A stretch of 64,000 bases of DNA, taken from positions 136,648,001-136,712,000 of the forward strand of contig OY740782.1 of the NCBI GenBank assembly GCA_963514005.1. Reading direction: 5' to 3'. Positions 11,455 to 56,326 of this stretch are shown piece after piece. The stretch comes from Raja brachyura (taxonomy: Eukaryota). Positions within the stretch are counted from its first letter, which is position 1, and every line of letters starts with the position of its first letter. Both the position numbers and the translations under genes were made by a program. A model generated the notes under the pieces. That model worked only from the letters and a program-made list of their open reading frames with translations, ran no database searches and had not been told where the DNA came from.

Positions 11455-12245
11455 GTTCAAGTTCACATTTACTGTCCCATGCACCAATTAAGGTACAGTG
11501 ATATTTGAGTTACCATACAGCCATACAAGTAAAGAGAACCCAATACACAATCAAATTTAACATAAACATCCAACACAGTGGAATCAGCATTCTTCACTGT
11601 GATGGAAGGCAATAAAGTCCAGTCATCTTCCTCTTAAGTTCACTCGTGGTCTTGAACCCTCCACAGTCGCCGCTACAGATGTTCAGGCGGGATGATCGAA
11701 ACTCCATCGTTGGGCTGGATCAAAACACACTCCACGGCTTGGAGTTCCCGAACGGCCGCTTCTTACCGGAGACCGCGGGCGGCTTCACGATGTTAACATC
11801 CACAGGCCCCCGCGGTTGGAGTTCCAACACTGGTAATCCTCGGCAAAGGATCGCAGCTCTGCGATGTTAAAGTCTACGCCGCACCCGCAGCTAGAAGCCC
11901 CGCAGACCGCCACTTCACGATGTTAAAGTCAACAGGAACCTGCGGTCGGAGCTCCTACACTGGCGATCCTCGGCAAAGGATCCCAGGCACCCCGATGGTA
12001 ATTTTACGCTGCGCCTGCTGCTTGAAGCTCCGGACCGCCGGTCTCCAGTCTGGAGAGGCCGCACCAATCCAGTTGTTAGGCCGCGAGGGGGGGAAAATAG
12101 TCACATCTCCGTCGGTTTCTCCCAATCCCCCCCGCCCACCCCCCACATCAAACCTACCGAGAAATATTAAAATATACATTTAGACCCACTAAAAATAACA
12201 AAACACGAGCTGCTAGCGAAGCTGCCGCTCGCAGCACCATCTGGT
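11455..12245 (-). mobile_element. Composite non-coding retroposon, copy 1
   Basis: AGATGG head, T/G-rich block, GC-rich internally repeated middle, TGCCTTCC hairpin at 11568-11612, Rex-like tail ending (gaactt)n. Confidence 0.7.
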
Positions 12246-12769
12246 GGTCATTTAGGTCACACATGGGTATTTTTTGTCTGGTGGTCAGTTCAGTGTCCAG
12301 TAATACTCGGCCGTGGTAGTGTTGAGGTTTGTGATAGTTGCTGCTGTTTCAATACCGTGCCACATTTATAGCACAACTCTCACAACTAAGCATTGGAGAC
12401 GGTGGAGGAGGAGACCAAGAAAAACTATTTTCTATCTCAGCCGATCATGCTCACTTATCTTTTACTGTGGCCTCTGCAGCAGCTACATGACCACACACTG
12501 GTAAGAAAAATGCAAAATAAACATTCCAAACCGGATATATATATATATAAAGCAAAACCCATGATAATGCATGAAAATATCAACTATTCATGTTTGTCTT
12601 TTATTTTACATTAATTCATGCATAGTGTGCACATCAATGCCTGCATGTATTGACCTTCTGGAATTATTCATGCACTGAGGAGCCAGCTCAGTCAGTGATC
12701 ATGTGCAGATCCCACCTCTTTGTTATTCGCTAAATTATGTTCACTATCAGCATACAAATCTGGTGGCAG

Positions 12770-13015
12770 TCAGCATAAGATGGAGGGGAGGTGTTTCTTT
12801 AGACAGAGGATGCTGTATCTGTGCAATTATTTCCCACAGAAGGCTGTGGAGGCAAAATCAGCCCTTTTAAGGCAGAGATAGATTATTAGTATAGAGGTTA
12901 TGGGGAGAAGGCAGGAGAATGGGGTTAGGAGGGAGAGATGGATCAGCCATGATCGAATGGCAGAGTAGAGTTGATGGACCGAATTGCCTAATTCTGCTCC
13001 GAAATCTTATGATCT
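12770..13015 (+). mobile_element. CR1 3' end
   Basis: FPQKAVEA...RGYGEKAG-like sequence plus gatcagccatgatcgaatggc 3' UTR. Confidence 0.85.
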
Positions 13016-13231
13016 TCTTTACATTGAATGCATTCAACTGAGGGGAGAAATGATAAATCGTAAGATGGCAATAAGGGTTTATGGTAAGGTTGAAAGAGGA
13101 GAAGCATCTTTGTAGATCAGTAGAGATCTAGTTGTGCGAAGGATAAGGCACAAGACATAGCCACCATCTTTCAATTCAGTTCCATTATTGGTAACGACCA
13201 ATGTTTGTGACTAATGACAGAACTGGTCACC

Positions 13232-14710
13232 AGGGGGCGCCGCACGATGGCTACCTTGCCAATGCTCTGTCTTAGTCTTTTTCATTCTTTGTGTTTTTAC
13301 TTCGTTGTATGTTTTTACTATGTTTTTATTGCGACGGAATTGCGACATTTTCCTAGTCGTATCTCTGTCTTCACTGCGGCCTAACCTCGTGGAGTTGGCG
13401 GCCTCTTGTTTGGGAATTCTAGAGCTCCAAAACCACGGAGCCTGCGTACTTTAACTTCTTGGGGCAGGCGATCCCTTTGCCAGGCGTTGGCCTTTGATGC
13501 TCCAACATGCGGGTTCAAAGGTTCAAAGGTTATTTTATTGGTCACATACACCAATTGGTGTGGTGAAATGTATCTTGCCAATGCAGCGCATAAAAAAGAT
13601 TACAGACATAACCATAATAAAGAGATTTTAAACAAGAAAAACATCCCCGCACAATGGTTCCCATTATGAGGGAAGGCACAATGTCCAGTCCCCATCCCAT
13701 GTCCACCCATAGTCACGCCCATTGAGGCCTCCGCAATCGCCTTCACGGAGGCCCGATGTTCCAGGCCGTTCTCGCCGGGTGATGGTGCTCCGGCGTTGGG
13801 AGAATCCTCTCAGCGGCTTGGGACACCTGGAACAGCCGCTTCCTTACCGGAGTCCGCGACTTCCGAAGCCAACAAGGCCGCACTGAATGGAGCTCCCCCA
13901 CTGGCTCCCGATGTTGAAGTCAGCGCCGCTGCCAGCAGCTGGCTGTTCCACAGACCCGCAGCTCCGCGATGTTTTTCTCGGCGGTCTCAGCTCACCGGAG
14001 TTCCAGCGCGGCGACCCGGGCAAGGCATCGCCCGCTCTGCAATGGCGCTCCAGCGCTGCGCCGCTGCCGAAGCAGAGGTTTCTGGGTGGTCTCCTCAGGA
14101 AACGCTGCTCCAGGCCCACTGGTAGGCCGCGAGGACGGGTCAAAAGTGCAGCCCGGAGAAAAGCTGCCTCTTCGACCAGGTAGGGACCAGAAAAAGTAGT
14201 TTCCCCCTTCCCCTCCCACACCCCCCCCATAAAAAATAGAACTAAAAAAAAACACTTTAACTCACTAAAAGTAAAGAAAAGAGTGAAAAACAAACAGCTG
14301 CAGGCTGGGCAGCCATACCACACAGGACGGCTCCCCCTAAGGTAATTGCAGACTTTAACATCGTGAAGCTCGGGGTCCCCGGTTAGGGGCCGATTTCGGG
14401 AACTCCAAGTCGCAGGAAATTCGACCATCCCAATGCGGGAGCTTAGACTGCCCCGACATGGGAGCTCGTTCACCGGCAGTGGATGGTTCGACTCCCTTGA
14501 CCACGGGAGGAAAGGAGGAAAGAAGATAAGACCTTATTGCCTTCCGTCACAGTGGGGAATGTGGAGGAGCCACTGTGGTGGGTGTTTATGTCAAATTTTT
14601 ATGTAGTTGTGTATCTTGTTGCTTTTTTAGTATCACTATATGGTAAACCAAATTCTTCGTGTGTTGCAAAACATACTTGGTTAATAAATGACGATTATGA
14701 TTTTTATTAT
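13232..14710 (+). mobile_element. Composite retroposon copy 2 (+), interrupted by copy 3 (-, about 13513-14340)
   Basis: Head ggggcgccgcacgatggc, hairpin at 14538-14585, tail aataaa(tgat)n; nested copy has hairpin at 13641-13680 and a (tttgaacc)n tail. Confidence 0.7.
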
Positions 14711-15389
14711 AGTATGTTTGGGTGATATAGCTATCATGGGTGAGTGACTAGCACTGTGTACAAGCTACAAGGCACAGAGCAATGTTAAGTGCATCTGGAT
14801 GAACTCAGGCAATGAAAGTCAGACACGGGCACTGATTGCTGAGGACTGTCAATAAGTGAACGCTGGAGGTGTGGTAAATTGAGCAGTGCCCAAGGCCAAC
14901 TGCATGGACATGATGTCTGCATTCATTCAACTTGCCTGAACTTCCTTCGTCGCATCATCAGATTTCCTGACACTGACCAGCGTGGTTCCTCCTTTTGGTT
15001 TGATTGAAGATGCCTCGCATATATCCAGTCAAAGCCCATTAATTAAAAGCTACACTCTCTAATCTTGTTTAGATCCTCATCTGCGTCAATCAAATCCTTT
15101 ACAAAAAATACGGTTTTGCTGAATTTTTGCAGGCTTGCTTTCTTTCAAACATGATTTTGTCTGCCTTCAGGGGTAGCCACTTAACTGCACTCTAAGTGAA
15201 GGGTGCAAATCTAGAATCATTTAAAAGAGGCAACATGGTTTCAATTGTTATGTACTGCTGCATAACAAGTTGCTGGATTTTGTTACAGAATGTAAGTAAC
15301 GTCAATGAGTTTGGGCAATGGTCCCGCGCATCATTAAATTGTGCAATTCAATTAAAATTGAAGCAATTGAATGGCTTAACCCCTTGAGA

Positions 15390-15570
15390 TCTCAAAGGCC
15401 TCTTGAGGTCGCTTTCATTGTCAGTGAAGTACTTTTGGATGTAGTCAGATGTTATGTCGAAATTGTGGCAGCAAGAACGTGCTCAGCAGTCTTCCACAAA
15501 CATTTGTGCAATACTGACCAATTTGTTTCAGTGGCATTAGCTGAGAGATAAGCATTAGCCAGGAACATTG
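15390..15570 (-). repeat. Ancient Deu-domain SINE remnant (SacSINE1/AmnSINE-like)
   Basis: gaagtacttttggatgtagtca...gcagc...cagcagtcttccacaaaca...tgacca...tagctgagagataagcattagccagga resembles the DeuSINE consensus as I recall it. Confidence 0.55.
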
Positions 15571-15674
15571 TCTTTATCAAATTAGTGTTCAGACAACTAC
15601 AGATAACTCTCTGACACCTCCTCCTACTTACCCCTGGACCATGACCCCACAGATGAGAATCAGGCCATTATCTC

Positions 15675-15912
15675 AGAGAGCATTCTTTACTCAGAGAGTG
15701 GTAGCGGTGTGGAATGAGCTTCCAGTGGAAGTGGTGGCGGCAGGTTCGTTGGTATCATTTAAAAATAAATTGGATAGGCATATGGATGAGAAGGGTATGG
15801 AGGGTTATGGTACGAGTGCAGGCAGGTGGGACTAAGGGAAAAAAGTTGTTCGGCACGGACTTGAAGGGCCGTGATGGCCTGTTTCCGTGCTGTAATTGTT
15901 ATATGGTTATAT
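15675..15912 (+). mobile_element. CR1 family B 3' end
   Basis: Near-identical to 20460-20690 (FFTQRVVAVWNELPVEVVAAG), (atatggtt)n tail. Confidence 0.95.
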
Positions 15913-16165
15913 TATTACCTCCAGTTGTCTGCCCCCCACTGCTTCCAACCTTATCGAGCCCCAGCCCCGCATGGCTCGGTTTTACCTTCTCCCTAAACTC
16001 CATAAACAGAACGGCTCTGGAAGCCAAGAAAAAGGTTTGAAGAAGGGTCTCAACCTGAAACGTCACCTATACCTCTCTCCAGAAATGATGCCTGACCCGC
16101 TGAGTTACTCCAGCATTTTGAGTCTATCTTCGGTGTAAATCAGCATCTGCAGTTCCTTCCTACAC
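15913..16165 (+). mobile_element. Penelope fragment: RT piece plus terminal unit with hammerhead motif
   Basis: LPPTASNLIEPQPRMARFYLLPKLHK is the PLE RT 'FYLLPKIHK' motif; followed by tgaagaagggtctcaacctgaaacgtc. Confidence 0.85.
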
Positions 16166-16839
16166 TAGTTTGTTGTTTGAAAATGTAGGTGTGGGAACTG
16201 GTTCAATGTCATATGAAGCAGAAAGTATCTCTAGCGCTGTAAGACTCCCTTGTGCATGGCAGTATCAGCCCAAATCTCTTGATCAAGTCTCCAGTTGGGC
16301 TCAGGAGGGGCAGTGCAATAACTGAAACTAGCACAAAATGTAACACCACAAACAGGGAGTCTGCAGGCATTAGACTGAGCCTCAGATACCTCGGTGGGGG
16401 AGAGAGAGAGGAATGCAGAACAGCACTCAAGCATTTGACACAAACACAGCGCCGACAGGTGTGTATGAGCTGGATGGCTGCCCAAGGTCTTGGCCAGGGA
16501 TCTTGCATGCTGCTGAGACAACAGAAGATGAAAGGAGACTATTAAAGAGTCTAAATTAATCCCCAAGCAGTGCACAAAACAGCAATGTTAGACAGCTGGC
16601 CTCTCAATAAAATGATTCAAAACTCAATCCCAGCTATTATTCTGTTTTACCCTCCTCAAGGGAGTACTGATCTAGAGAAGGGGAAGAAAAAGAGTAACAA
16701 CTTGTAGTCTGAGGAAATGGTAAAAGTAGGCTGAAGTCAACAGGAAAGAATATCAATCCCCCATTAATCTTCAGTACTTAAGGGGAACATCTCATTACAT
16801 TGTGTCCTCACAAAGTGGCCTCATCATCATTAATTTTAC

Positions 16840-17130
16840 CGAGTCATAGTGACACAGGAAAAAAAGACCCCTCGGTCCACTGAGTTTGTGCTGCTTATCA
16901 AGCAGCAATTTGTACCAATTTCTATTCCATTCTGGCCACTTTCCAAACCCGACACAGATTCTAGCATTCATCTGCACACTTGGGCTAATTTATAGTGTCC
17001 AATTAACCTACCAAATGCCACATCTTTGAGACATAGGAGGAAACTGGAGCACCCAAAATAAATCCCTGCGGTTACAGGGGGATTGTGAAGCAGCACAGTT
17101 GGTCCAGGGATTGAACCCAAGGTTCTGGAA
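16840..17130 (-). mobile_element. HE1-like V-SINE, degenerate
   Basis: V-domain-like gggtgctccagtttcctcc...caaagatgtg...gtaggttaattgg on the minus strand. Confidence 0.75.
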
Positions 17131-18534
17131 GAGCAGCTGTCACAGAACGCCAGCAATTCAGTTAAGTGATCACTGTAAATTGCCTCTGGTGCAAGTGAGT
17201 TGATGGGGATGAGAGAAGGATAAAAAGGGACTCCTGTAAAATCAGAAATAAATGGCCGATACAAAGTAGAAATGGACTCAATGGAGCAAATGGGTATGTT
17301 TCAATGCCATAAGACCATGAATATAGTGAACCTGAGCTGTGATGAACAGCGTTCCAGATTGGGTCTAACAGAAACTCTAATCAGCTGCAGTGTCCACCCC
17401 TTTATATTTCAGCTACCTCGTGCGAAAGACTAAGTTCCATTAGCTATTCCAATTCTTTCTTGCACCTGTCCATTAGTTTTCAGTGACTTCTCCAGTTGGA
17501 TTTTTGAAACGGTAATATAATTTCTTATTGTGTGGCACTTGGAGAAGATGACTCTTCAAGCCCACCCAGAAAATAATTCTGCATGATTGGATGCACAATC
17601 TACGAGTTAGGATGAAGATGGAGTAACTCAGCAGGTCTGGCAGCAGATCTGGGGAAAGGGAATAGGTGACGTTTCAGGTTGAGACCCTTCTCCACACCAA
17701 CCCTTCTACTAGTTAGGGCTTTGGGTTGTAACTTTTGTTTAGCACATGGGCCAATGTTGGTTCTCAGAAGGTGCAGGCCTCGGCCGCCATCAATGCCGTT
17801 GACAGAAAGAAAGCTGTTAATGTTTAACACAAAAGACTTTGGTAACTAGATTTAGTTTTAGATTTGTTACTGTCATGTGTACTGCGGTACAGTGAAAAGC
17901 TTTTGTTTGTGTGCTGTCCAAACAAATCAGATGATACTGTACAGCAATACAATCAAGCCAAAAACAAGTACAACATGTAGACTGAAGAGAAAGATACAGA
18001 GTGCAGAATATAGTTCTCAGCATTGCAACGTATCAATTCCATAGACAAAGTCCAATGACTACCCCAATGCGGTTGAGATAAAATGGAGGGTATTCTATCT
18101 TATGGAATTACCATTCACAAGCCGGGTAACAGAGGAGAAGAATCTGTTCCTGAATCTGGTGGCAGGTGCATTAACGTTCCAGTGAATAATATAGCAATAG
18201 TGATAAAGGGCTTCATTGAAGTGCATACACAACCTACAGGTGGGAAGTGACTCGTTAATTTTATTTGCTCTATTCAATAAAGCTGCCGTCTCCTTGCAAG
18301 TCCTCCCACAGTTATTTACTGATTCATTGGCAATAAATAAGCTGCACTGACTTTCATGAGAAATTCATATGGCCAATTCATCTTGATATCGTGGATGCAA
18401 GCAGGCCCACATTTTACCTTGTAAATTTTAGAAGCTGGAGAAAATATCTGAATTTTTATTCAAATCCCTTCATGGCCTCACATTCAAATTACAAATCACC
18501 GAGATCCTCATATGCATCCCCAATTTCCATTACT

Positions 18535-18940: not shown

Positions 18941-18994
18941 ATGGTCGCAGTCTACACAAATCAAAGTCAAAGTCAAACAAACTTTATTGTCATT

Positions 18995-22320: not shown

Positions 22321-22334
22321 TCTCCCTATTGGTG

Positions 22335-30419: not shown

Positions 30420-33400
30420 AAGATGGTGCTGAAAGGAGGAGACATTTTGTGGGCAACATGTTGGAGAACACTTATACCCTACAATTTGACATTTTAAAGG
30501 TGAGCTCCATAGCCAGAACTACCACAGCAGAAATTACTTTTTAAGTAATCTTACATCATCCTACAGACCTGATCCCTGCAGCTTTGTGTAGACCTCCATT
30601 GTGCTCGAAAACCTGGTCGCCAGGGAACCCCAAGTAAACACTGACGCGTTGAGGTATGCAAACTCACCTTCCCTCTTCAAGAAGCACCCTTCTTGCTAAT
30701 ATACTTGTTCTTGCTGGAGAATAAGATATATGACCCATGAGCAAGACATCAGTGACATGAGAGACATTTCTGCCTCACCAGAAATACCTGGACACTGAGC
30801 TTTGGGCTGAGAACGTTTCCATCCACCTCATGAACTGGATGGCAAAGTCGCAAAAAGGAAAAGAGGGTGGCTTCTGCATCATGATGTACTTGGACGGTGT
30901 GCTTGGACGTTGTGTTCTCATCTCATTCCTGCTTGTTGGCTTGGAACAGCTGGTGGCTAAGTGCTGACCATTCTATCTCCCGAGAGAGCTTTCCACCGTC
31001 ATCCTGACTGCAGTCTACATCCTGCCTCAGGCAGTCATCAAGCAAGCACTAGGGGAATTGAGCACCGCGCTAAACTATGCGTCGCTCTGGGCATCCAACC
31101 GACTCTGCCTAACTACAATTAATACACCATCTTCACTCTGGCATTTGTCTCTCTGCATTACCCGTTGAATGCTTGGATTGTGCTCATGCACGATATGATT
31201 TGACTGCACATCACATAAACAAAGCTTTTCACTGTAGATAGATACAAAATACTGAAGTAGCGCATTTCTTTATTATTAAGGGTCTCCACCCAAAACGTCA
31301 CCAACTCCTTCTCTCCAGAGATGCTGTGCAACACCTCTGGAGAGAAGGAATTGGTGACTTTTCGGGTCGAGACCCTTCATCAGACTAAGAGTAAGGGAGG
31401 GGGACACTGGAGGTATGGGAAGATACACAACAATGCAGAGCCTGCAGTGATGACTCGGGAAAGATGAAGCCGACAATGGTCATTGTTGGCTGGGGAAGAG
31501 GTTATAACGAAGGAATACAAACGGTGAAATTATTAATCGAATACTTTTTCACTGCATCGTGGTACATAAAACAATAATAAACCAACACAAACCAATGCAA
31601 ATGCCTTCAATAGCACAGGACCCAACACACTCGACCACTATATCACCAGTTCCGGCTACCACTCCGTCCCTCGCTTGCACTTCGGTAAATCTAACCATCT
31701 GGCAGTGTTTTTTCTTTCCTCCTGTGGGCAAAGACTGGAGAGGTGGCATCAGCAAGAAGGACAACAAAGAGCTGGTGGGGGAGACAGAGGAAAGGTTATG
31801 AAACTGCATCAACCCGGTGGACTGGACATCAACAGACCTGAATGAATATGTCACAGTTGTCAGCAGCTTCGTAAAAAGAAACGTGTGGATTCGTGTGTCC
31901 CTACAAAAACATTCTAAGTCTTCCCCAATTCAGGGCGGCACAGCGGTAGCGTTGCAGCCTTATAGCGCCAGAAACCCACGTTTGATCCTGAGGTGCTTTC
32001 TGTATTGGATTTGCACTTTTCCACTGTGACCATGTGGGTTTGCTCCAGTTTCCTCTTACATTCCAAAGACGTGCAGGATTGTGGGTTAATTAGCTTCTTT
32101 AAATTGCCCCCAGTGTGTAGTATAGAACTAGTGTACAGTTGATCATGGCTGGCACAGACCCTGCGGGCCGAAGGGACTGTAATTCTAAAGTAAATGCTGT
32201 ATGTCTAAACTAAACTAAAGCAGTCCTTGATGAACTAGGAGACATGTAATCTGCTGAGGGCCAGATCTGTGGCATTTTGGACCAGCTATCCAGAGTTATA
32301 CTGAAGGCCACCATGAGTGCTAAGGGAATTCTGGACTAAGGTGGATTCACAGGCAAAAGCCCCACACCTGTGACATAGATGGCAAAGATGCATCATTTCT
32401 GGATGAGCTCAAGGTCTTTTTTCACCAACTTCGAAAGAGAAAACAACGACACACCTACACGAGCTCTCCCAGCTCCTGACTGCCCCGTGATGTCAGACAA
32501 TGAGGCCGACATCGGAGCACACAAAGCTACTGGCTCAGCCAGCTACCTGGCCGAGTGCTAAAGACCTGTGTGGACTAGTCAAAATGTAGATACAAGGAAC
32601 TGCAGATGCTGATCAATCTGAATTCACTGGAATTTAAAAGGATGAGAGGGGATCTTATAGAAACATATACAATTCTTAAGGGATTGGAAAGGCTAGATGC
32701 AGGAAAAATGTTGGGGGAGTCCAGAACCAGATGTTCTCCTGACGATCCACCACTCCCAATGTTGGGGGAGTCCAGAACCAGGGGTCACAGTTTAAGAATA
32801 AGGGGTAGGCCATTTAGGACTGAGATGAAGAAAAAACATTTTCACCCAGAGAGTTGTAAATCTGTGAAAATCTCTGCCATGGAAGGCAGTGGAGGCCAAT
32901 TCACTGGATGTTTTCCAGAGAGAGTTAGATGTAGCTTTCAGGGGTAACGGAATCAAGGGATATGAGGAGAAAGCAGGAACAGGGTACTGATTTAGGATGA
33001 TCAGCCATGATCATATTGAATGGCAGTGCTTGCTTGAAGGGCCAAATGGGCTACTCCTGCACCTAATTTCCTATGTTTGTATGTTGCTTCTGGACCCGTA
33101 ACGTCACCTTTTCATGTTCCCCAGAGATGCTGCCTGGTGTGTTACTCCACCAATTTGTGCCTTCCTGTGTGGACTAACTGGTTGGACTATCCAAGACATT
33201 TCAACCTCTTGATTTTGAGATCCAAGGACTTCACCTGCTTCAAAGGGGCATGTGTGTATCAGTACCCAACAAGAACATGGTGATCTGCCTCAATGATTAC
33301 CGTTGCATAGCATTTACATCCACTGAATTGAACTGCTATGAAATATTTTATATGGTGCAATGGGGTTATGGTATGTCAGGGGTTATGGGGGGAAGACAGA

Positions 33401-36583: not shown

Positions 36584-38143
36584 CAGCACATTCAGAAAGT
36601 ATTCAGACCACCTTCAATTTTCCACATTTTGTTACATTACAGCCTTATTCAAAAATTGATTACATTAATTTTTTTATCATCAATCTACACACAATACCCC
36701 ATTATACAAAAAACAAAACAACCATTTTAAATGTTTTCAAAGAAAAAAGAAATAACTGATACTTAAATATTCAGATCCTTTACTCAGTACTTTGATGAGG
36801 CACCTTTGGCAGTGATTACAGCCTCAGGTCTTCTTTGGTTTGATGCTACAAGCTTGGCATACCTGCATTTGGGTCACTTCTCCCATTCTTCTCTGCAGAT
36901 CCTCTCAATCTCTGTCAGGTTAGATGGGGGCATCGATGCAGAGCTATTTTTAGGTCCCCCCAGAGATGGTCGATCGGGTTCAAGTCCAGGCTCTGGCTGG
37001 GTCACTCAAGGACATTCACAGACTTGTCATGAAGTCACTCCTGGTTTGTCTTAGCTGGGTGCTAAGGGTCATTAATCCTGTTGAAAGGCGAACCTCCGCC
37101 AAGACCAAGGTCCAGAACACTCTGGAGCAGGTTTTCATCAAGGATCTCTCTGTATTTTGCTCCATTCATCATTCCCTCAATCCTGAGTAGTCTCCCAGTT
37201 CCTGCCGTTGAAAAACATGCCCACAGCATGATGCTGCCACCACTGTTTCACCATGATGAGCGGTGCATGGTTTCCTCCAGATTTGTCACTTAGCATTCAG
37301 GCCAAGGAGCTCAATCGTGGTTTTATCAGACCAGAAAATCTTGTTTCTCATGGTCTGAGAGTCCTTTCGGTGCCTTTTGGCAAACTCCAAGCGGGCTGTC
37401 ATGTGCCATTTACTGAAGAGTGGCTTCCATCTGGCCACTCTACCATAAAGGCCTGATTGGTGGAGTGATGCAGATATAGTTGTCCTTCTGGAAGGTTTTC
37501 CCCTCTCTACAGAGGAACTCTGGAGCTCTGTCAGAGTGACCATCGGGTTCTTGACCAAGGCCCTTCTCCCCCGTTTGGCCGAACAGCCAGCTCTATTGGA
37601 ACTTTGGAACAACCTGGTGGTTCCAAAGTTCTTCCATTTTAGAATGACAGAGGCCACTGTGCTCTTTGGGAGCTGCAATGCTGCAGAAATTGTTTATACC
37701 CTTCCCCAGAATCCTGTGTCGGAGGTCTATGGACAATTCCTTCATCTGCACGACTTGGTTTTTGCTCTGATATGCACTGTCAACTGTGGGACCTTATATA
37801 GACAGGTGTGTGCCTTTCCAAATCATGTCCAATCAATTTAATTTACCACTGGTGGACTCCAATCAAGTTGTAGCAACATCTCAAGGATAATCAATGGAAA
37901 CAGGATGAACCGAAGCTCAATTTTTAGTGTCATAGCAAAGGATCTGAATACTTATGTAAATGTGATATTTCAGTTATTTATTATTAATTATATTGCAAAC
38001 ATTTCAAAACACCTGTTTTCATTCTGGGCTATTGTGTGCAGATTGATAATAAAAAAAATGAATGTAATCCATTTTAGAATAAGGCTGTAACATAACAACA
38101 TGTGGAAAAAGTGTAGGGGTCTGAATACTTTCTGAATGCACTG
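36584..38143 (-). mobile_element. Tc1/mariner transposon with decayed transposase (Passport-like TIR)
   Basis: TIR cagcacattcagaaagtattcagacc / ggtctgaatactttctgaatgcactg, TA on both sides; minus-strand KNPMVTLTELQ...LHQSGLYGRVAR.KPL...IFWSDKTTIEL; splits a CR1 'LIEV|YKIMRG' frame (36350-38480). Confidence 0.95.
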
Positions 38144-40423: not shown

Positions 40424-41645
40424 TGTAGATGTTTAGTGCATGTCCCTTTAATTGTAGGTTGTGTAGCCACTCCCCTTTCACCAAGTATATTACTGTCTCT
40501 CCATCCCTGGTACCCCCTCTAGTAAAACGTGCAGACCATGTACAACTAGGGCATCGATATATATGTGATTAATAAAGACTCGGTAAAGGAACACTGTGTA
40601 CGTGTATACTCCTTTACATGGTGTCGGTCGTTTCGAATTGCGCGCCTCCTGTTTATCGGGTTTAGTTTTTTTGCCCCAGTTACCCTTTCCTGCCTGGTCA
40701 CGGCTTCCTCCTGCCGCAAGCCTGAGTCCCTTGTCTTTGACGACGACATCGCTCCCCGGTGGAACGTGTTCCGCCGGGATTTTCGGCATTATGTGGCTCT
40801 CGTGCACCCGGGAGTTTCCTCTGCCATTAAAGCGTCGCTGCTATTGAATCTAGCCGGCTCCGAGGCTCTGGAGCGCTCTGAATCGTTTGAGTACGGGCCG
40901 AATGAGGACCCCGAGGACCTTGACTGTCTACTGGGGAAGTTCAACGAGATGTGCGATGTGCCCACGAACTCTATTCTGGAGCGTTTTAAGTTTTTTGGAC
41001 GTCGTCAGAAACCAGGTGAGTCTGTCGGCAACTTCTACGCTGACCTACGGCACCTGGCTAGGCGATGCCACCTGAATGACGCTACCCCAGAGACCCTGAC
41101 CCGCGATGTCCTGGTGTATGGTCTACGAAATGAAAAGCTGCGGTCGGAGCTCCTGTGTAAGGCAGACTTGACTCTCCAGGCTGCCCTGCATGCTGCAAAG
41201 ATGTCTGAGGCTGTTATCTCTGCTGCACCACCCCCTGATCATGAGGTTCGGGCAGCTACCGTCGCAACCCGCCGTCCTGCTCAGCAAACTCGCCGTGGGG
41301 CCAGCTATGGTTCAAGTTCCAAGCTGGAGAAGCGCTGCCCGAACTGTAACTTTGTGACTCATCGTTTCAACGTGTGCCCTGCGGTGGGAAAGATTTGTAA
41401 CTTCTGCAACAAGCCTAACCACTTCTCGTCAGCATGCAGAGCTAGAAAAAATCCTGCCCAGCAACAGCGCAGGCACTCTAATTACCTGGTACGGGATGGT
41501 ACTGCGTCTGGTTCTTATCACTCTCCTGACAACCTCCCACTGTCTGATTCGGACTCTTCTCAGAGTGAGCAACTAGGGCATCGATATATATGTGATTAAT
41601 AAAGACTCGGTAAAGGAACACTGTGTACGTGTATACTCCTTTACA
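40424..41645 (+). mobile_element. Internally deleted, gag-only Ty3/Gypsy LTR retroelement
   Basis: TCTTC duplicated at 40419-40423 and 41646-41650; 5' LTR TGTA...TACA 40424-40618; PBS-like TGGTGTC at 40619; last 76 bp of the LTR repeated identically at 41570-41645. Confidence 0.93.
40700..41599 (+). CDS. gag: Gypsy Gag (capsid plus two CCHC zinc knuckles), open frame ending inside the 3' LTR
   Basis: ERFKFFGRRQKPGESVGNFYADLRHLARRC (MHR-like), RDVLVYGL, CPNCNFVTHRFNVC and CNFCNKPNHFSSAC; presumptive start codon reads ACG. Confidence 0.9.
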   Translation, partial: TASSCRKPESLVFDDDIAPRWNVFRRDFRHYVALVHPGVSSAIKASLLLNLAGSEALERSESFEYGPNEDPEDLDCLLGKFNEMCDVPTNSILERFKFFGRRQKPGESVGNFYADLRHLARRCHLNDATPETLTRDVLVYGLRNEKLRSELLCKADLTLQAALHAAKMSEAVISAAPPPDHEVRAATVATRRPAQQTRRGASYGSSSKLEKRCPNCNFVTHRFNVCPAVGKICNFCNKPNHFSSACRARKNPAQQQRRHSNYLVRDGTASGSYHSPDNLPLSDSDSSQSEQLGHRYICD

Positions 41646-42111
41646 TCTTCTGAGAAAGTAGAGGCATTGTAGTGTATTTTCCTGGTCGCAGCTTCCATTT
41701 GCTTGGTCCAGGATAAATTGTTGATGATATTTATACCTGGGAACTAGAAGCTCTCAACCATCCCCAGATCAGCACATTTGGTGCTGACTGGAAAATATGC
41801 ACAAACCCATTCCCTGAAGGCAACAAGTAGCTCCTTCATTGTGATGATATTGAACAAGATGTTGTTGTCTTGACATCCTGTATCCAATCTCCTTCTCAAC
41901 ATTGATCAAGTTCTGGCCCACTACAGTGGCAACATCTGCAAACCTGTAAACGAAGTTCGAGCACAAACGGAGGTCCCCCCACACCGGGTGCCAATTGTCT
42001 TCCCCCCCACCCCCCACCACGTTCCACCCCGCCACTGGGGCTCCCGCTGTTGCAGTTTTCCCTCAGTCTTCGACAACCAACCATCTCCACTACTTCATCA
42101 CAAACTACCTT

Positions 42112-42325: not shown

Positions 42326-43947
42326 ACAGAAGTGATCTTCCATTAGAAGATCAAAAGTAGATGTGAATAATGATGATTGTACCATATTTAATTGAATTTG
42401 CAACTCAACAAATTATACAGCCCGAGGCAACAGACAAGGATAGTGGCAAGTAATTAAAACATTATCACAAAATTGTCACCCAATGACATTGTCCAACAAG
42501 AAAGACACTGCTCACCTACATTTGATATTCAACAACTCCATGCTTCCCATCATCCCAAGGGTGCCAATTGACCAGAAAATAGATTGGACCAGCATGAGCA
42601 AGAGAAGGTCAGAAGCTGAAAATCCTGAAGTGCCTGCACCGTGTAATACTCAACTGCTGATATTCAAATCTATGCCATAAATCTGTCATGTGATTTGCAT
42701 CAGTCGTCTGCAATTGAGCAAGTGCAGTTTCAAGTCAAACAGGTCCAGACCACCAAGAATATGAAACCTACTGGAATGGTATTTGCTTCACTCCCCAACA
42801 ACATTAATTCCCTCCATTAGTGGCCACGGCACATACCACCTCCAAAACGCACTGCAGTTACCTATCTCAACTCTCTGGGCAGTACTTTGCAGACATATGG
42901 TAAGACCACGGCAGAAGGAGGACACCACCACCTACAGGTTTCCCTTCCAGATGTCCACCTGTTGACTTTGAAGTACACCAGAAGTGCCTTTGTTGTCGCT
43001 GTGCCTAAATTCTGGAACTCTTTACCCAACAGTAATGTAGAAGTTCCTTCAGCATAAGTACTGCATTGATTCAAGAAGATGACTTACACTTAACTTCTCA
43101 TGGACGTTTATGAATGGGTAATGAAAGGCCTTTTTAGTCACAAATAATTAATTAAAGGGAAAACTGAAGTCTGCTATCCTGTTAATTCCCTTCAGTTAAA
43201 AATGCTTTCTAGGAATAGGATTATACTCTTGGTCCCTTAATTAAATAGACACAATATTGACTATGTATAAACAAACATATACCTAAAATGATGGAGGTGA
43301 TTATTTTACTCGGAAATGTGATTATTACTATTTAACATTTTTTTTAGATAATTATTTTGTTATAAAACTTACCAATGTTAAGTACTCCATTCCGTAAATA
43401 ATAACAACTGAAAGACTTCCATTAAATATTTAACACAATTTGATCTTTCCCCATTCCCCTTTACTGGCACACACATCTATAGAATTAAAAGTCTCATCTT
43501 GACCACTTCCTGTCTATGCTCTATATTGATTTTAGAAAAAACGCTACCCTGTATTGCTGTGATCTTTGGCCATCTTACTCACAGTCCTCCTCCGTTGAGC
43601 CAGCTCTGAGGATTTTTCCCATTGATGAAAAATAAAAAAGTTATGAGTGTTTAAAAAACCTTGAGATCAGGTTATTGATCCTCTCGCCTGTCAATCACCA
43701 TGATGAAAGTAATGCCATTTCCGGGGGGGGGGGGGGGGGGGGTTGAACTATAAAACCACAGATGCCTGAATATCAAATGTCAGTCACTCTGCAAGATCAT
43801 GAGGGAGAGCCCATGATCTGGATCTCAGAAATGAAATTAACTGAAATGACAATGCCATGGGTTGTTTGGCCTGCTGCCCTGCCTGTGCTTAAAATTACAA
43901 TGTTTTATTAGGTCCAACTGTGTTTGGAAGGAATAAATGCTTTATTA

Positions 43948-44420
43948 GCGGCGGCCTGGCTTTCGGGAGCTGTGGTGCTCCAGCGGTGGCCTGGCTTTCG
44001 GGAGCTGCAGTGTTCCAGCGGCGACCTGGGTTTCGGTAGCTGCGGTGCTCCAGCGGCGACCTGGGTTTCGGGAGCTGCGGTGCTCCAGCGGCGACCTGGG
44101 TTTCGGGAGCTGCGGTGCTCCAGCGACGTTCCGGCGGCGGCCCTGTGGCGGTGTTCCGGCGTTCCGGCGTCAGCGGTCTGGATCCCCTCAGCGCAGAGGG
44201 AGAATAAGGAGGGGAGAAAGACAGAGACCCTAAGACTTTTGCCTTCCACCACAGTGAGGAGGTGTTTGGTGAACTCACTGTGGTGGATGTTAATTTTGTG
44301 TTTATTGTATGGTATTGTTATTTTTATATATGTATGACTGCAGGCACGACATTTTGTTCAGACCGAAAGGTCTGAATGACAATAAAGGCATTCAATTCAA
44401 TTCAATTCAATTCAATTCAA
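43948..44420 (+). mobile_element. Composite retroposon copy 4 with 35-bp VNTR
   Basis: Tandem ggcgacctgggtttcgggagctgcggtgctccagc (about 5 units), hairpin at 44240-44290, ttcagaccgaaaggtctgaa stem-loop, (ttcaa)n tail. Confidence 0.8.
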
Positions 44421-44691
44421 TTAGGTCTGACTGTGTTTGGAAGGAATAAATGCTTTATTAGGTCTGACTGTGTTTACTCCAAAAGTCCCGCTCATTTTGT
44501 GACTTCCACTTAGCGGACAGGTCGCGCTGATTGCGCAATTTCCGGTGAGTGCAGTGGATGCGCTGATTGCGTAATTTCTGGTAAGTGCTGAAGTCACTCT
44601 GATTGCAGAAGTTCCGCTGACTGTGGAAGCCCCACAGTGGAGAGGCCATACTCAGCTGTGTGAGTAGATTCAAGAAAGTTTACAGTCATAT

Positions 44692-46984: not shown

Positions 46985-47172
46985 CTCAGAGAATAGTCAC
47001 ATCCTCGCCAGGAAGTGACTGGGAAATGGTCCCCCCCTTACCATACCCCCTCTCCCACATAGAAAAACTACAGAACCCTCCAAAACATACTGTTAAGACA
47101 AATTAACATTAAAATAAGATCGAAAAAACGGACAGACTGTAGGCAGAGGCTGCCAACAATGCGGCGCCCCTA
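46985..47172 (-). mobile_element. Head fragment of the composite retroposon (copy 5)
   Basis: taggggcgccgcattgttggcagcctctgcctacagtctgtccgtttttt followed by a G-rich block, as in copies 2, 3 and 7. Confidence 0.6.
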
Positions 47173-47284
47173 GTGGCAGGTGTAAAACACAATGACTGGA
47201 GATATGTGGCATGAATCAGAATCATGTGTTCATCTTTATTGACATGACACCACAATATATATAGTAGAGACAAAATAATTTAAT

Positions 47285-50479: not shown

Positions 50480-53335
50480 CAAAAAGATCTACCACTGGGT
50501 GACCCGATGAAATGGATGCTTTCTATGCTTGCTTCGAGCAGAAGGCCAAACAGGGCGGTGACACCTGGTCCTTCAGACTCCATTGTGCCTCTCCCCAGAG
50601 TGACTGTAGCAGAGATTAGATCAGCCTCCCTGAGAGTAAACTCACAGAAAGCAACTGACCCTGATGGAGTACCTGGCCATGTCCATGGTAGATGCGCGGA
50701 CCAGCTAGCGAGAGTATTCGCAGACATCTCTAATCCCACTCCGTTCTCCGGTACACACCTGCTTCAAGACAACCATCATCCCAGTGCCGAAGAAAACAAA
50801 GACCTCCTGCCAAAATGATTGCCATTCAGAGGCTATGTTTTGAGAGACTAGATGTGGAACTCGTTAAATCCAGTCCACACAGCAACCTTGACCCACTGCA
50901 GTTCGCCTACCACCACAACAGATCTACAGAAGATGCCATCGTCCTAGTCAGACACTCATCCCTGGAACACCTGAACACCCATTGTTTCAGCCTGCTCCTG
51001 TCACACGGGAATGAATTCCACGTACCTCGACTCCATCCTATCCCCACTGGTCCAATCTCTCCCGATCTATGTCCAAGATACCTCACATGCCCTTCGTCTC
51101 TTACATCACTTCTGCTTTCCGAGCCCCACTCCATCACTTTACTATGGATGTTCAGTCATTCTACACCTCCATCCCCCACCAAGATGGCCTTGCAGTCCTC
51201 AGTTTCTTCCTCGACCGCAGAACCATCCAATTTCCCTCTACTCATACTACTCCACCTAGCGGAGCTGACCCTCAACCTCAACAACTTCTCCTTTGACTCC
51301 TCCCACTTCCTCAGTCCAAGGCATAGCTATGGGAACCTGCATGGGCCCCAGCCTCTTTGCCTGCCTCTTTGTAGGGTACGTTGAACATTTCCTGTTCCAG
51401 GCATGCACTGGCCCTATCCCCAAACTCTATCTCCATTACACTGATGACTGCATTGGTGCTACCTCCAGCACCCATGCAGAACTCATGGACCATCAACATC
51501 ACCACCAATATTCATCCTGCACTCAAATTTATTTGGACCATCTCCGACACCTCCCTCCCCTTTCTTGATTTCATAATCTCCATCACAAGAAATAGACTAC
51601 TGACTGACATCTATTACAAACCCACTGACTCCCACAACTATCTCAACTACACTTTTTCCCACCTTGCTTCCTGCAAGGACTATCTCCTGCTCCCAATTCT
51701 TCCGTCTGCGCAGCATCTGCACCCAAGATGAAGTGTTCCATACCAGAACATCCGAGATGTCCTCATTCTTTAGGGAACAGCTCCGCCCTTGCTCCCCCTC
51801 CCCTCAAGTCACAAGAGTGACAGAGTCCCCCAAGTCCTTACCTTCCACCCCATTAGCCGTTGAATACAACCATAATCCTCCAAAATTTCCGTCACCTCCA
51901 ATGGGATCCCACCATTTGTCACATTTCCCCATCTCCACCCCTTTCCGCCTTCCGCAGCGCCCGTTCCCACCGCAACTCCCTGGTTAACTCATCCCTTCCC
52001 ACCCAAACCAAACCCTCCCCGGGTACCTTCCCCTGCAACTGCAGAAGATGCAACACCTGTCACTAGACATCCTCCCTCAACTCTGTCCAGGGACCCGGAC
52101 TGTCCTTTCGGTTTAGGTAGAGGTTCACTTGCACCTCCTCCAACCTCATCTACAGTATCCGTTGTTCAAGATGTGGACCAAACGCAGACTGGGCGATCGT
52201 TTTGATGAACACCTTCGCTCAGCCCGCGTGAACCAATCTAATCTCCTGGTTGCTGGACACTTTAATTCTCCTTCCCATTCCTATACAGACCTTTCTGTCC
52301 TCGGTCGCCTCCATTGTCAGAGTGAGGCTAAATGCAAATTGGAGGAACAGCATCTCATATTTCGCTTGGGCAGCTTACAGCCCAGTGGTATGAATATTGA
52401 TTTATCTCACTACAGGTATCCTTGGCATTCCCTCTCTCTCTATCTCTCCCCCACCCGTAGCACAAGCTTCTAATTTTCACCCTACAAACAGCCTACAATG
52501 GCCTGTTTCCTTTATCATCATTACTTTTTTGCATCTTTCATTCATTGGTCTTTATATCTCCACACCACCGTCTATATCTCTCATTTCCCTTATCCCTAAC
52601 CAGTTTGAAGAAGGGTCTCGATCTGAAATGTCACATATTCCTTCTCTTCAGAGATGCTGCCTGTGCCGCTGAGTTACTCCAGTTTTTTGTGTCTTTCTTC
52701 ACCAAAAACTTCTCCTGGACCACCTGAAAGCACACCAATGCCTCTACTTCCATAGAAGGCTTAAGAAGTTTGGCATGTCCCCTACAACTCTCACCAACTT
52801 CTACAGACGTACCATAGAAAGCATTTTATCAGGATGCAACACAGCTTGGTTTGGGAACAGCTCCATAAAAGACCACAAGAAATTGCAGCAAATTGCGGAT
52901 GCAGCCGAGATCATCACACAAACCAACCTCCCTTCTATTGACTCCATGCTGCCTCGGCAAGGCCAGCAACATAATCAAAAATGAGTCGCACCCTGGCCAC
53001 TCCCTCTTCTCTCTTCTCCCCTCTCCCATCAGGCAAAAGTGTGAAAACGCACATCTCCAGATTCAGGGATAATTTCTTCCCAGCTCTTATCAGGCAACTG
53101 AAGCAACCTATCACAACCAGAGAGCAGTGCAGAACTACTATCTACCTCATTGGTGACCCTCAGACTACCCTTGATCGGACTTTGCTGGTTTTACTTTGCA
53201 CTCAATGTTATTCCCTTATCACGTGTCTATACACTGTAATTGTAGTCATGTTTTGTCTTTATGCTGACTGGTTAGCACGCAACAAAAGCTTTTCATTCTA
53301 CCTCGGTACATGTGACAATAAACTAAACTGATACT
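50480..53335 (+). mobile_element. Decayed Rex1 LINE (50480-50975 and 52700-53335) split by a Penelope insertion
   Basis: KATDPDGVPG...[30 protein letters not shown]; resumes as NFYRRTIESILSGC; tail tgacaataaa(ctaaa)n. Confidence 0.9.
50980..52695 (+). mobile_element. Penelope-like element (decayed RT plus GIY-YIG endonuclease, terminal unit with hammerhead motif)
   Basis: YVQDTSHAL, FTMDVQSFYTSIPH, QGIAMGTCMGPS, YTDD, DIYYKPTDSH, PCNCRRCNTC, CTSSNLIYSIRC, TKRRLGDRFDEH, VAGHFN. Confidence 0.95.
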
Positions 53336-53794
53336 GAGGTGAACAGGTTAAAAGAAATGGAAATCAAACTTTAAAATAAGCATTGGATATTTGACTCTGC
53401 CAAGCATCCCAAAATATCACTAAAATTGTATTCATAAAATGGTAGTGTTCCTGTAAGTTGATCAGCAGGTCCAAAAGATTCACAATATAACCATTATCTC
53501 TTAATCCTTTAAACCTGTTGGCCTACTAATAATGATTAATAATGCTGTGGGTTGATAGCATGCATAATTTTTTCAGTAAGTTATGACCCAATATTTAATG
53601 ATGGCAAAGGATAAGAACATATTGAATTCAATAATGTTTAACAAGCATAAATTAATTAATAGTGCATGTAACTATTAACAGTAATATTATGCAAGTATCT
53701 TGCAAATAATGACCATATAAAATCCGAAATTAGATTTAAGAGGAAGAATGATAAGTAATGGTCTTAAATTTAGGTACAGCAAAGAGATAACAAA

Positions 53795-54172
53795 TAAGTA
53801 AGTAAGTAATTTTTATTTATATAGCACTTTTTAAATCAAATCACGCTGAAGCCAAAGTGCTTTACAGATAAGAAATTAGATTTCCATACATCCATATAAA
53901 AGAAAAAAGAAAAAAAGACACAATATACTTAGGATTCAACATGAAACGTCCCCCCACAGCAGAATCCACTGAGGGAAGGCACCAAAAAGTCCAATCCTCC
54001 TCCTCCTCATAGTCCACCCGAGGTTGGGGCCTATTTGTGGCCTCCTCAGCCAGTCCGATGTTTTCAGGCCCTCTTTGCCGGGAAGCAGGAACTCCAGTGT
54101 CGGGTGAACACTCCTCTGCGGCTTGGAAATGTCTGGAGCGGCCGCTTCCTCCCCGGAGACTGCGGCATTCGA
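53795..54172 (-). mobile_element. Composite retroposon copy 6 (truncated)
   Basis: GC-rich body, gaggag block, shortened tgccttccc hairpin at 53945-53985, tail aaataaaaa(ttac)n. Confidence 0.6.
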
Positions 54173-54659
54173 TACATACATATACGAGAAATAAATACTT
54201 TGGCACATATTCAAAATTGTATTTGGCCGATACACAACTAGTCGTCTCCCAAAAATCAATGGTCACGTAATTTTACAATTCAGGGGCATGAACGTACAAA
54301 ATTTGCTCGAGAAACACATAGGAAAATGGACAGGTAGCAACAATTGTTTCAAAGGGTAGGAGGGGAAAGTTTCGGGGGGTAAAGGCAATAGTGGATTTTG
54401 AAAATCAGGATTAATATTTGCTAATGAGGCGTAATTTATCTGCGAGTCATTGTAGGTCATGGATGACGAGATCTTGGTCATCTGGGACAGCAGGCTTTCA
54501 AACATTCTAAATGTGATGACAGCTGGAAAAGCATCAGAATTATTGAGCTGTAACAAGACTCTGGACAAAGTTTAAGATTTCAGCAATTGATGAATTGAGG
54601 AAAGCAATGCTACATGATATAGTTTTATAAACATACCCCTTTGCTCCTCAGTCTCAGAG

Positions 54660-55370
54660 AACACATCCCTCTTGCAAAGCCATGTTGACTATTGATAATA
54701 AGCCAATTTTTTTCCAAATGAGAGTAAATTCTCGCTCTGAGATCATTTCCTACAATTTCTCGACCACTTGCTCACGGGCCTTTTGCTTCTTGTGTTTTTC
54801 TGACACAACGTTGGCTATTCTCCAGTCTTCTGGGGGTCTTCGCCATGCCATAGATTTCCACCAAGACCCCAGCAATCCTCCTATGTCTCCCTCAGTATCC
54901 TGGAACAGATCAAGCCTCAAAGTCTTATCCTTAATGTTATTTTAACACACCCAACACCGTCTCCTTCTTAATGTTGGTGTTGGCATACTATGGCATAAAT
55001 AGTGAGATATCCTTAATAGCTTTGTTTTGCAAGCTTTTCGGGGGAGATTATACCATACTTGACTGCAATCACACCATACACCAGTACAACATGCAAATGG
55101 ACCAAGAGAGTAGAATGTAGTGTTACAGCTCCTTAATATTAACGTACCATGGCATATAAATATATCTCTGATCTCACCATCTCCCATGTTCTTCATATTG
55201 GTGAATACTGAAGTGAAATACTGATTTAGGACCTCGCCCATTTCCTCTGGGTCCAGGTAAAGATTCACTCCTTTTTCTAAAATGTATCCTCCATTTCCCT
55301 AGTTACCCTGTTACTTTTTATATACATAGAAAATGCCATGGGTTGCACCTAAGAGCCACTTGCCAAGGAG
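54660..55370 (-). mobile_element. Old CR1 fragment with nested insertion
   Basis: EEMGEVLNQYFTSVFT, DWRIANV, SQHGF. Confidence 0.75.
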
Positions 55371-55516
55371 AGAGTCATAGTTTTAGATTCAAGTTTGTTA
55401 TCGTCACGCGTACCGAAGTACAATGAAAGCCTTGTATATCATGATATCCAATCTGCTTAAATAACTCTATACATAGATATAATCAAGTCAAACTCAAGTG
55501 CAATAGGTAGAACAAT

Positions 55517-56326
55517 TGGATTGGATTGGATTGGATTCTTTATTTGTCCTTCAGACCTTTCGGTCTGAACGAAACTCTGTTCCCTGCAGTCATACATATA
55601 ATTAAAAATAAATAAATAAATAATGACAGAACACACAATAAACATCCACCACAGTGAGTTCACCAAACATCTCCTCACTGTGATGGAAGGCAAAAGTCTT
55701 AGAGTCTGTGTCTCTTCCCTCTTCTTTTCCCTCTGCGCCGAGGCGATCCAGGCCTCCGATGCCGCGACCGCCGCTGCCGCCGCCACCGCTGGAACCGCTC
55801 CGGGAGTCGGGCCACCGCCGCCGCTACTGCCGCCGCTGGAACCCCACCGGGAGTCAAGTCGCCGCTGCCGCTACAGCCGCTGAAACCGCCCCGGGAGCTG
55901 GGCCACCGCTGCTGTTGCTGCCGCCGCCGCCGGAACCCCACCGGGAGCCGGGCCACCGCTGCTGCTGCTGCCGCCGCCGCCGCCTGAACCACTCCGGGAG
56001 TCGGGCCGCCGCCGCTGCTGCTGCCGCCGCCGCTGGAACCGGTCCGGGACAGGGGTCGGGTCGCCGCCACTGGAACAGCCCCGGGGCCCGAGGCCGCCAG
56101 CTCTGCCATTAGGCCTCAGCGCAGACGGAGACAGGGGATACAACACAAAAAAAATTGCACCCCCCCCAGAAGGAAGAGACCCGGACATGTTACTCCCCCC
56201 CCACCCACATACACACGCAATCTAACAAAACAAACGAACCCCACTAAGAACAGGACAGAAAAAAATAAAATAAATAACAGACGGACTGCAGGCGGGCCGC
56301 AGCTGTTAAACCAGCGCCGCCATCTT
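55517..56326 (-). mobile_element. Composite retroposon copy 7, apparently full length, with GCN-rich VNTR
   Basis: AAGATGGCGGCG head, T-rich and G-run blocks, tandem (gcggcg/gcagca)...cccgactcccggagtggttcc units, hairpin at 55642-55692, ttcagaccgaaaggtctgaa loop, (aatcc)n tail; sits in a Rex1 tail. Confidence 0.8.

Follow-up and report, generated by a model that had tools for sequence, protein, structure and literature searches.

The 64-kb window analysed here is the whole stretch of 64,000 nucleotides from Raja brachyura (contig OY740782.1, positions 136,648,001 to 136,712,000). It belongs to a genome of 2.7 Gb and is rich in long interspersed nuclear elements (LINEs) of the CR1 and Rex1 types. 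Among these lie seven copies of a non-coding retroposon, labelled e1 (11455), e2 (13232), e3 (13513), e4 (43948), e5 (46985), e6 (53795) and e7 (55517). A preliminary description had read them as SVA-like retroposons with exchangeable GC-rich cargo and Rex1-type tails, and all seven are present where it placed them. Our analysis shows that they are members of one superfamily of retroposons without an open reading frame (ORF), which is real, abundant and long-lived. The purine block and hairpin of the proposed layout are present in six of the seven copies; e5 is a head-only copy. The elements and their parts are as follows.

11455..12247, minus strand: e1, full-length, with the CTCF-like 5' end CCACCAGATGGTGC, 92% identical to its family consensus; further parts are a ~130-bp internal duplication, the hairpin, a TCAC..GTGAC Rex1-type tail and (GAACTT)n.
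13227..13512, plus strand: 5' part of e2, with a CTCF-core-like start followed by a head matching the 5' end of Rex1 lineage B (GGCGCCG..ACGATGGCTGCC).
14346..14710, plus strand: 3' part of e2, with the remaining body, the hairpin, a Rex1-B-matching tail (..CATACTTGG.YAATAAA) and (GATTAT)n.
13513..14340, minus strand: e3, full-length and younger, with a TCAC..GTGAC tail and (TTTGAACC)n, 95% identical to consensus.
43948..44422, plus strand: e4, 5'-truncated, with a 35-bp variable-number tandem repeat (VNTR; 5.1 units), the hairpin, a TCGTT..AATGA tail and (ATTCA)n.
46985..47176, minus strand: e5, head only (CCACTAGGGGCGCC, T-tract, G-run); the 3' part is absent at this locus, and the family is full-length elsewhere.
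53795..54172, minus strand: e6, 5'-truncated, with a body homologous to e1, e3 and e5.
53795..53866, minus strand: tail of e6, TGTAAAGCACTTTG..GTGCTATATAAATAAA plus (ACTT)n, shared with a non-Rex1 LINE, probably of the L2 clade.
55517..56326, minus strand: e7, full-length, of a very young family, with the YY1-like start AAGATGGCGGCG, T-tract, G-runs, VNTR, hairpin, terminal stem-loop and (AATCC)n, 99% identical to consensus.
55760..56070, minus strand: GC-rich VNTR of e7, with units of about 45-50 bp.
55643..55690, minus strand: conserved internal hairpin of e7, TCCATCACAGTG..CACTGTGGTGGA, present in all families.

The element e3 is nested within e2 (13227-14710) on the opposite strand, and no target duplication was seen at its junctions there. 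A search profile seeded on the six hairpin-bearing window copies, with reversed DNA as control, gave 19 matches in a 464-kb set that contained the window. In 800 kb of unselected DNA from elsewhere it recovered 22 further copies, and the reversed DNA gave none in either case. The count of 22 corresponds by rough extrapolation to ~74,000 copies genome-wide, and the window, with six profile matches in 64 kb, is denser than the genome average. Searches of the own genome with e7, e1, e3, e2 and e5 gave 2,253-5,437 candidates, of which the best 40 matches for each query were scored; those of e7 are 97-100% identical, and since the scored matches are the best ones, such identities overstate the youth of the families. 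The modules belong together outside the window as well. With the e5 head as query, the hairpin lay downstream on the same strand at 23 of 30 loci and upstream at 1 of 30, and heads collected without targeting had a hairpin within 1.5 kb downstream in 26 of 39 cases, compared to 1 in the opposite-strand control. The copies are fixed at both their 5' and 3' ends; many are 5'-truncated, and one (L006) is inverted at its 5' end. Thus, both the co-occurrence of modules and the 5' truncation, to which the preliminary description had drawn attention, were found.

Full-length copies (n = 79) are self-contained units of 597-1,368 bp, and the superfamily is typically 0.7-1.1 kb long and ORF-less. In this set, which leaves out five duplicate e7 loci, the 3' identity to consensus is 99.0% for e7, 97.8% for e3, 94.8% for e1, 93.9% for e2 and 93.3% for e5; the superfamily has therefore been active in several waves, up to recent time. 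Some e7-family copies share flanks (L012-L016 on G000:C48, about 17-40 kb apart, and L019/L020), and these therefore reflect segmental or tandem duplication and not fresh insertion.

Long open frames in the elements are by-products of GC-rich sequence and VNTRs and occur on both strands. Five chance ORFs over the elements had no Pfam match at cut-off, which agrees with the preliminary description in that no credible ORF is present. It had also reported no tRNA A or B box, and this too was supported: with box patterns as we presume them, none of five consensus heads had an A box, and the B box had no exact match (1-3 mismatches), the latter being a weak test as a tRNA-type short interspersed nuclear element (SINE) in the window also has 2 mismatches. 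Heads derived from tRNA, 7SL, 5S or small nuclear RNA were not found in the window by Rfam or ARAGORN (0 matches each), a search of limited sensitivity that also missed the window's tRNA-type SINEs. Contigs of four sequencing runs cover head and hairpin; one of these is no more than a presumed RNA run, so that the contigs have no bearing on transcription.

The CpG-rich middle was thought to differ completely between copies and to represent exchangeable cargo. Our alignments, with z scores measured against dinucleotide shuffles, contradict both points for most copies, as the middles of five families (e1, e2, e3, e5 and e6) are homologous. Family consensus heads are 72-83% identical over the aligned part (z 9-49) and the e1, e2, e3 and e5 family middles 70-87% (z 9-49). 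Global identity is 69-79% among the middles of e1, e3, e5 and the e6 family, and 47-50% for the shorter e2 middle. Among the window copies e1, e2, e3 and e6, the middles align with z 7-29 in five of six pairs, the e2-e6 pair having z 2.0. Length differences arise by internal tandem duplication and deletion, e.g., 130 bp in e1, and new GC-rich VNTRs are confined to the e4/e7 (43948/55517) lineage, five of the seven families having no true VNTR. Across 20 loci, five of which are segmental duplicates on C48, the e7-family VNTR spans 301-721 bp between fixed anchors with 3-13 unit cores, and its variable length is therefore a family trait.

An SVA-like chassis in which a fixed head and a Rex1 tail enclose acquired, unrelated GC-rich cargo could explain why the e7 middle does not align with those of e1, e2, e3 and e6 (z 0.1-1.4), and why the VNTR units differ in length (35 bp in e4, about 50 bp in e7). 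However, the families of five of the seven copies have colinear middles, the VNTRs of e4 and e7 align with each other (z 7.8), the changes in length are tandem duplications and deletions, and the module that is discordant between families is the tail and not the middle. This explanation is already largely refuted, and we regard it as very unlikely. As judged from the alignments, the exchanged module is the tail.

The tails were compared with those of Rex1-type LINEs, four of which lie in the window:

9020..10291, minus strand: Rex1-type LINE of lineage A, 3' part, with a terminal stem-loop tail; comparison element.
5375..6335, minus strand: Rex1-type LINE of lineage B, 3' part, with the same tail type as the e2 family.
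63349..64000, minus strand: Rex1-type LINE of lineage B, 3' part, used as search query.
30420..31075, plus strand: old Rex1-type 5' fragment which starts AAGATGG, as the preliminary description had noted, with a decayed endonuclease match at 30791-31075.

The five Rex1-type partner lineages (A, B, D, F and G) are 49-72% identical, and the lineage A ORF has RVT_1, PF09004, which we take to be a Rex1 marker, and a weak endonuclease match. The tail motif TTTC..stem..GACAATAAA was found at the end of 111 of 165 Rex1-type copies, compared to 1 of 205 for CR1. Elements and Rex1 have a terminal stem-loop architecture in common, and its closing pairs vary by lineage (TCAC/GTGA, TCGTT/AATGA and the TTCCT..CATACTTGG type) in a manner matched between the two. 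At least four tail types occur across the element families, three or more of Rex1 type and one non-Rex1; the typing by regular expression overlooks decayed copies (25 of 198 untyped). When a Rex1-only tail profile was applied to 28 unselected elements, 17 outscored 95% of 600 random stretches. Against 13 Rex1 tail clusters, with clusters R1 (a nested e7 copy, L030) and R12 left out, the e2 tail had its best match in Rex1-B (score 54, next 23), and the e1, e3 and e5 tails matched TCAC-type Rex1 tails (scores 43-46) in a way that is not lineage-specific.

The e6 family carries a different tail. Its pattern occurs 1,377 times, compared to 0 in the control, and the e6 tail scores 79 with a non-Rex1 LINE (L393) and 31 with the best-matching Rex1 tail; the e6 body, in turn, scores 183-194 against e1, e3 and e5. 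At 12 loci with a variant of this tail the hairpin was found in 11 and the head in 5, and at 8 loci with a sister variant the tail directly ends a reverse transcriptase (RT) ORF in 4. The ORF of the L393-type LINE is 25-28% identical to the five Rex1 lineages and 27% to CR1, PF09004 was not found in it, and the closest relatives of its RT are many unnamed teleost RT proteins. We presume this LINE to be an L2 from its C-terminal motif GDRAF..APRLWN and its tail type, and the partner that supplied the e6-family tail is thus probably of the L2 clade. The attribution of Rex1-type tails therefore stands for most families and fails for e6 (53795-54172), whose tail is that of a different LINE clade; the proposal that all copies are mobilised by Rex1 fails with it, given the probable L2 tail of the e6 family. 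The tail as the swapped module, the match to a single lineage at both ends in the e2 family and the CTCF-core 5' ends did not feature in the preliminary description. A further family was also observed, with the head GGGGGCGCTGCAAG, a short-loop hairpin and a TTCACTTGCAC..GTGAC tail (C10blk 86464 = L089, L257, L309 and the C33 block).

At the 5' end, full-length copies of Rex1 lineages A, D and G begin with AAGATGGCG or AAATGGCG. Their ORF opens at base 1 or close to it, and no T-tract/G-run head was found in them. At all 25 endonuclease-bearing loci of lineage B, the 5' end reads ..TGGCGCCRACGATGGCTGCC followed by a T-rich tract. The e2 head matches this end (p 0.003, the floor of 300 shuffles; 48 comparisons), the e5 head matches Rex1-B less well, and the e7 head matches Rex1-G weakly (p 0.007). 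Hence, the e2 family is matched by one Rex1 lineage (B) at both ends. Lineage D, the youngest (149 of 150 scored matches at 98-100% amino acid identity), has a GC-rich, mostly in-frame VNTR of about 0.5-1.7 kb at its ORF start, which differs between copies and has the units PHPTRG / GAGERHPTR (L271, L272, L273 and L276; G000:C2:94689500-94696000 and others). We considered whether the e7 VNTR is the Rex1-D VNTR, and found no clear match among the matches listed.

Since tails and short 5' motifs match LINE ends, the stretches might be untranslated regions (UTRs) or decayed remains of autonomous LINEs, and 7 of 200 hairpin matches do have a same-strand LINE C-terminus at most 450 bp upstream. Yet these seven are a mixture of CR1 and Rex1 at variable distances, as nested insertion predicts. 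The 79 full-length copies are self-contained at 0.6-1.4 kb, the hairpin profile matched no genuine Rex1 3' UTR (the sole match, L030, being a nested element), and full-length Rex1 of lineages A, B, D and G have different starts. We consider this explanation extremely improbable, and the UTR of an intact LINE, which the preliminary description had named as fatal to its own proposal, is rejected for lineages A, B, D and G, whose 5' ends were compared, other LINE lineages being sampled in part. One locus, L111, imitates a "head-LINE-tail" element; it is an e5-family element interrupted by a Rex1-A insertion.

The 5' termini depend on the family and resemble what we take to be YY1 (AAGATGGCGG), ETS (CCGGAAGTGG) and CTCF (CCACCAGRKGGCGC) motifs. 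A perfect CTCF core occurs 1,146 times genome-wide, compared to 14 for the reversed pattern. Among the first 30 such sites on C1, the profile identified 19 as element 5' ends, inspection by eye added one, and about 8 lie in another repeat family. The latter reads ..tggcc(t/c)aaCCACCAGRKGGCGCCACA (L327, L328, L330-L332, L335, L337 and L339). A looser CTCF consensus (at most 1 mismatch) gave 12 sites in 800 kb, of which only 2 coincide with element heads, and most CTCF-like sites are therefore not derived from the elements; the e3, e5 and e7 consensus heads do not fit the looser consensus. The CTCF-like motif shares bases with the YY1-like start, and may do no more than assist the promoter or have arisen from it.

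Target-site duplications (TSDs) of at least 8 bp turned up once among 79 full-length elements and in none of 11 Rex1 copies. Long TSDs are thus not a feature of the elements, e4 being an exception. This element is flanked by a 42-bp direct repeat (43907-43948 / 44420-44461, 95% identical), with a further partial unit after the second copy, i.e., either an unusually long target duplication or a tandem repeat that was already there. Where an element had landed in another repeat, its junction fell between -11 and +12 bp in 37 of 39 cases. The e7 family contributed 12 of these junctions, all at -2 to -7. The insertions are thus near-blunt, with overlaps of 2-7 bp, and the same overlaps were seen in 5 of 7 cases for Rex1-A. 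According to parts of PMC4245944, the target overlap peaks at 3-5 bp for L2/CR1 and at 13-15 bp for L1. The element overlaps fit the L2/CR1 peak and not that of L1, and the 3' ends are microsatellites with no poly(A) tail.

The explanation that we consider probable, with all its steps taken jointly, is that the elements arose when a GC-rich body of separate, untraced source came to lie between the two ends of a Rex1-type LINE. A Rex1-type origin of the ends is suggested because the head motif and the tail of the e2 family both match lineage B. A capped RNA polymerase II (pol II) transcript would start from base 1, via the YY1-, ETS- or CTCF-like motifs at the 5' terminus. The ORF2 protein of the partner would then bind the terminal stem-loop, and insertion would proceed through target-primed reverse transcription; cognate stem-loop recognition has been demonstrated for zebrafish L2 (in parts of PMC4176376). 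New tails could be gained by template switching or recombination just downstream of the hairpin and T-rich tract. In this way the tail of one Rex1 lineage would give way to that of another, in one case to that of a probable L2, and the element would survive by following whichever LINE is active. The internal hairpin may act as RNA, independently of the LINE partner: in 13 diverse copies its 13 pairs hold in 95.7% of cells, a value reached by 0 of 500 shuffles and compared to 33-56% in slid controls, with double-sided changes at 3 of the 13 pairs. Judged from the sequence features, both pol II transcription with mobilisation in trans and the borrowing of LINE enzymes with switching between LINE partners are likely.

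Several observations weigh against this explanation. The head likeness to Rex1 is short (about 20 nt plus the T-rich tract) and was chosen from 48 comparisons, the e1 and e3 heads match Rex1 weakly, and e5 combines a Rex1-B-like head with the tail of another lineage. The Rex1 tail profile fails for 11 of the 28 unselected elements, including e1 and e7 of the window; two of these are L2-type, one is interrupted, and the others have a Rex1-like tail by eye only. None of the 13 Rex1 tail clusters is a specific partner of the e4 and e7 tails, whose best scores (31-32) are close to background and whose likeness to Rex1 is limited to the general motif and stem-loop. The names Rex1 and L2 are themselves presumed from motifs as we know them and not taken from a reference library. 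Rex1-D junctions are scattered from -1 to +42 (5 cases), and short overlaps cannot tell Rex1 from CR1 or L2. The covariation of the hairpin rests on 3 pairs, and two of five measures do not exceed the shuffles (202/500 and 330/500). Finally, body and hairpin have no match in any Rex1 or other LINE copy examined, save nested element insertions, and because this body of 500-800 bp between head and tail is unmatched in LINEs, an "internal deletion" of a LINE accounts for the ends only.

These points could instead fit a composite SINE-like family, similar to BuceSINE/ManaSINE2, with a GC-rich non-LINE head and acquired LINE tails, in which the likeness to Rex1 would be convergence on YY1-type promoter motifs. 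In addition to the short match to Rex1-B, families differ in their 5' termini, neither the body nor the 150-nt head region of T-tract and G-run has a LINE match, and GC-headed SINEs are known from birds (parts of PMC4844689). On the other hand, both ends of the e2 family match a single Rex1 lineage, and the TGGCGCCAACGATGGC(A/T)GCC of Rex1-B is present in related copies such as L343. We therefore see the composite origin as the less likely of the two, though a serious one, and favour an origin of the ends from a Rex1-type LINE. A much wider claim would be that of a pol II-driven, small-RNA-free superfamily of cartilaginous fish which outlives its LINE partners by Rex1/L2 tail swaps and has independently evolved an SVA-like VNTR in its youngest branch. 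It would also be the source of about two thirds of the genomic CTCF motifs with a perfect core (about 700 of the 1,146, should the C1 sample be representative), some of which would be occupied and influence chromatin looping. Taken as a whole, this claim is rather unlikely to hold.

Two other observations concern the remainder of the window. A 349-aa open frame at 40550-41599 resembles a long terminal repeat (LTR) retrotransposon gag with a CCHC knuckle and is bracketed by a 77-bp exact repeat (40543-40619 / 41570-41646), and the translation of 37286-37841 reads as what we presume to be a fragment of a Tc1/mariner-like transposase.

The families may already be entries in Repbase, Dfam or RepeatModeler sets (as Unknown, SINE? 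or Rex1-N), the interpretation alone being new. De novo repeat finders could not miss tens of thousands of copies of which some reach about 99% identity, and near-identical words are found in sequencing runs of at least four organisms, at half or more of the words. Against this, our literature search gave no description of these elements, with Repbase, Dfam and SINEBase outside the comparison and supplements of skate and shark genome papers as places where they may be listed. The parts of PMC5499810, PMC6274825 and PMC7245038 considered do not describe them, and the Repbase-wide survey of Kojima 2018 (PMC5786205) names, in the parts cited here, no clades beyond RTE, Ingi, Vingi and R2 from which ORF-less bipartite LINEs derive. 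We rate the chance that they are already catalogued as slightly below even.

A Rex1-tied family of ~70,000 copies with no small-RNA head would lengthen the list of sources of ORF-less LINE-end parasites. One body with tails of several LINE lineages and two clades would be a natural swap series for RNA recognition by stringent LINEs, and the same series bears on the role of the conserved non-tail hairpin. The young VNTR branch would be an independent counterpart to primate SVA, and the CTCF-core 5' ends may bear on retroposon-seeded insulators in a slowly evolving vertebrate genome.

Among known systems, the ORF-less bipartite LINEs (RIME, NARTc, Bov-A, Vingi-1_EE and R2 derivatives) are comparable in having no ORF, no small-RNA head, a LINE-like 5' motif, a LINE 3' tail, and presumed pol II transcription with mobilisation in trans. 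Parts of Kojima 2018 (PMC5786205) expect pol II transcription for them, record SINE tail exchange, and ask if the source-clade bias is real. In contrast to these systems as described there, the partner here is Rex1-type, once probably L2, and thus outside the four known clades; a non-LINE body of 500-800 bp lies between the ends, and the tails vary between families. The elements are thus not made solely of the two ends of a LINE, as body and hairpin have no Rex1 match. Their 3' ends are homologous to LINE 3' ends in e2 (Rex1-B), e6 (the L393 LINE) and e1, e3 and e5 (TCAC..GTGAC), and at motif level in e4 and e7.

Compared with the CORE, V and Deu SINE superfamilies, as treated in parts of PMC5499810 and PMC3747384, the elements are alike in a conserved core, switched LINE tails and many subfamilies of differing age. 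They differ in that no tRNA, 5S or 7SL head was found, in being about three times longer and in their pol II-type 5' motifs. The sections of PMC3747384 concerned tabulate tRNA- or 5S-headed SINEs paired with RSg-1 or Rex1-24_NV, and the HE1/HER1 SINE/LINE pair is given for sharks and rays (parts of PMC3747384 / PMC5499810 group). BuceSINE/ManaSINE2, in the parts of PMC4844689 that describe them, share the GC-rich 5' part of untraced origin, the lack of a pol III head and the LINE tail, but are mobilised by RTE with a bipartite RTE tail, whereas the elements here have Rex1/L2-type tails, the internal hairpin and VNTRs.

SVA-type composites are, according to parts of PMC4432496, hominoid-specific and L1-driven. 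The e7/e4 lineage resembles SVA, LAVA, PVA and FVA, as far as these are described there, in being a young, non-coding, non-autonomous retroposon with a variable GC-rich VNTR, and differs in having no poly(A) tail, no 13-15 bp TSD and no dependence on L1. The Alu-like and ERV/L1-derived domains of such composites would not be expected in this lineage. The SVA analogy of the preliminary description thus applies to the layout of the VNTR (e4/e7) lineage and not to the remaining five families. Rodent B2 SINEs supply CTCF sites borne by transposable elements and are alike as a retroposon family that supplies many CTCF-core matches; here, the motif is at the exact 5' terminus, in some families only, and known as a motif match. 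Collectively, the elements behave like a bipartite non-autonomous LINE or a tail-swapping SINE, yet fail a defining feature of each.

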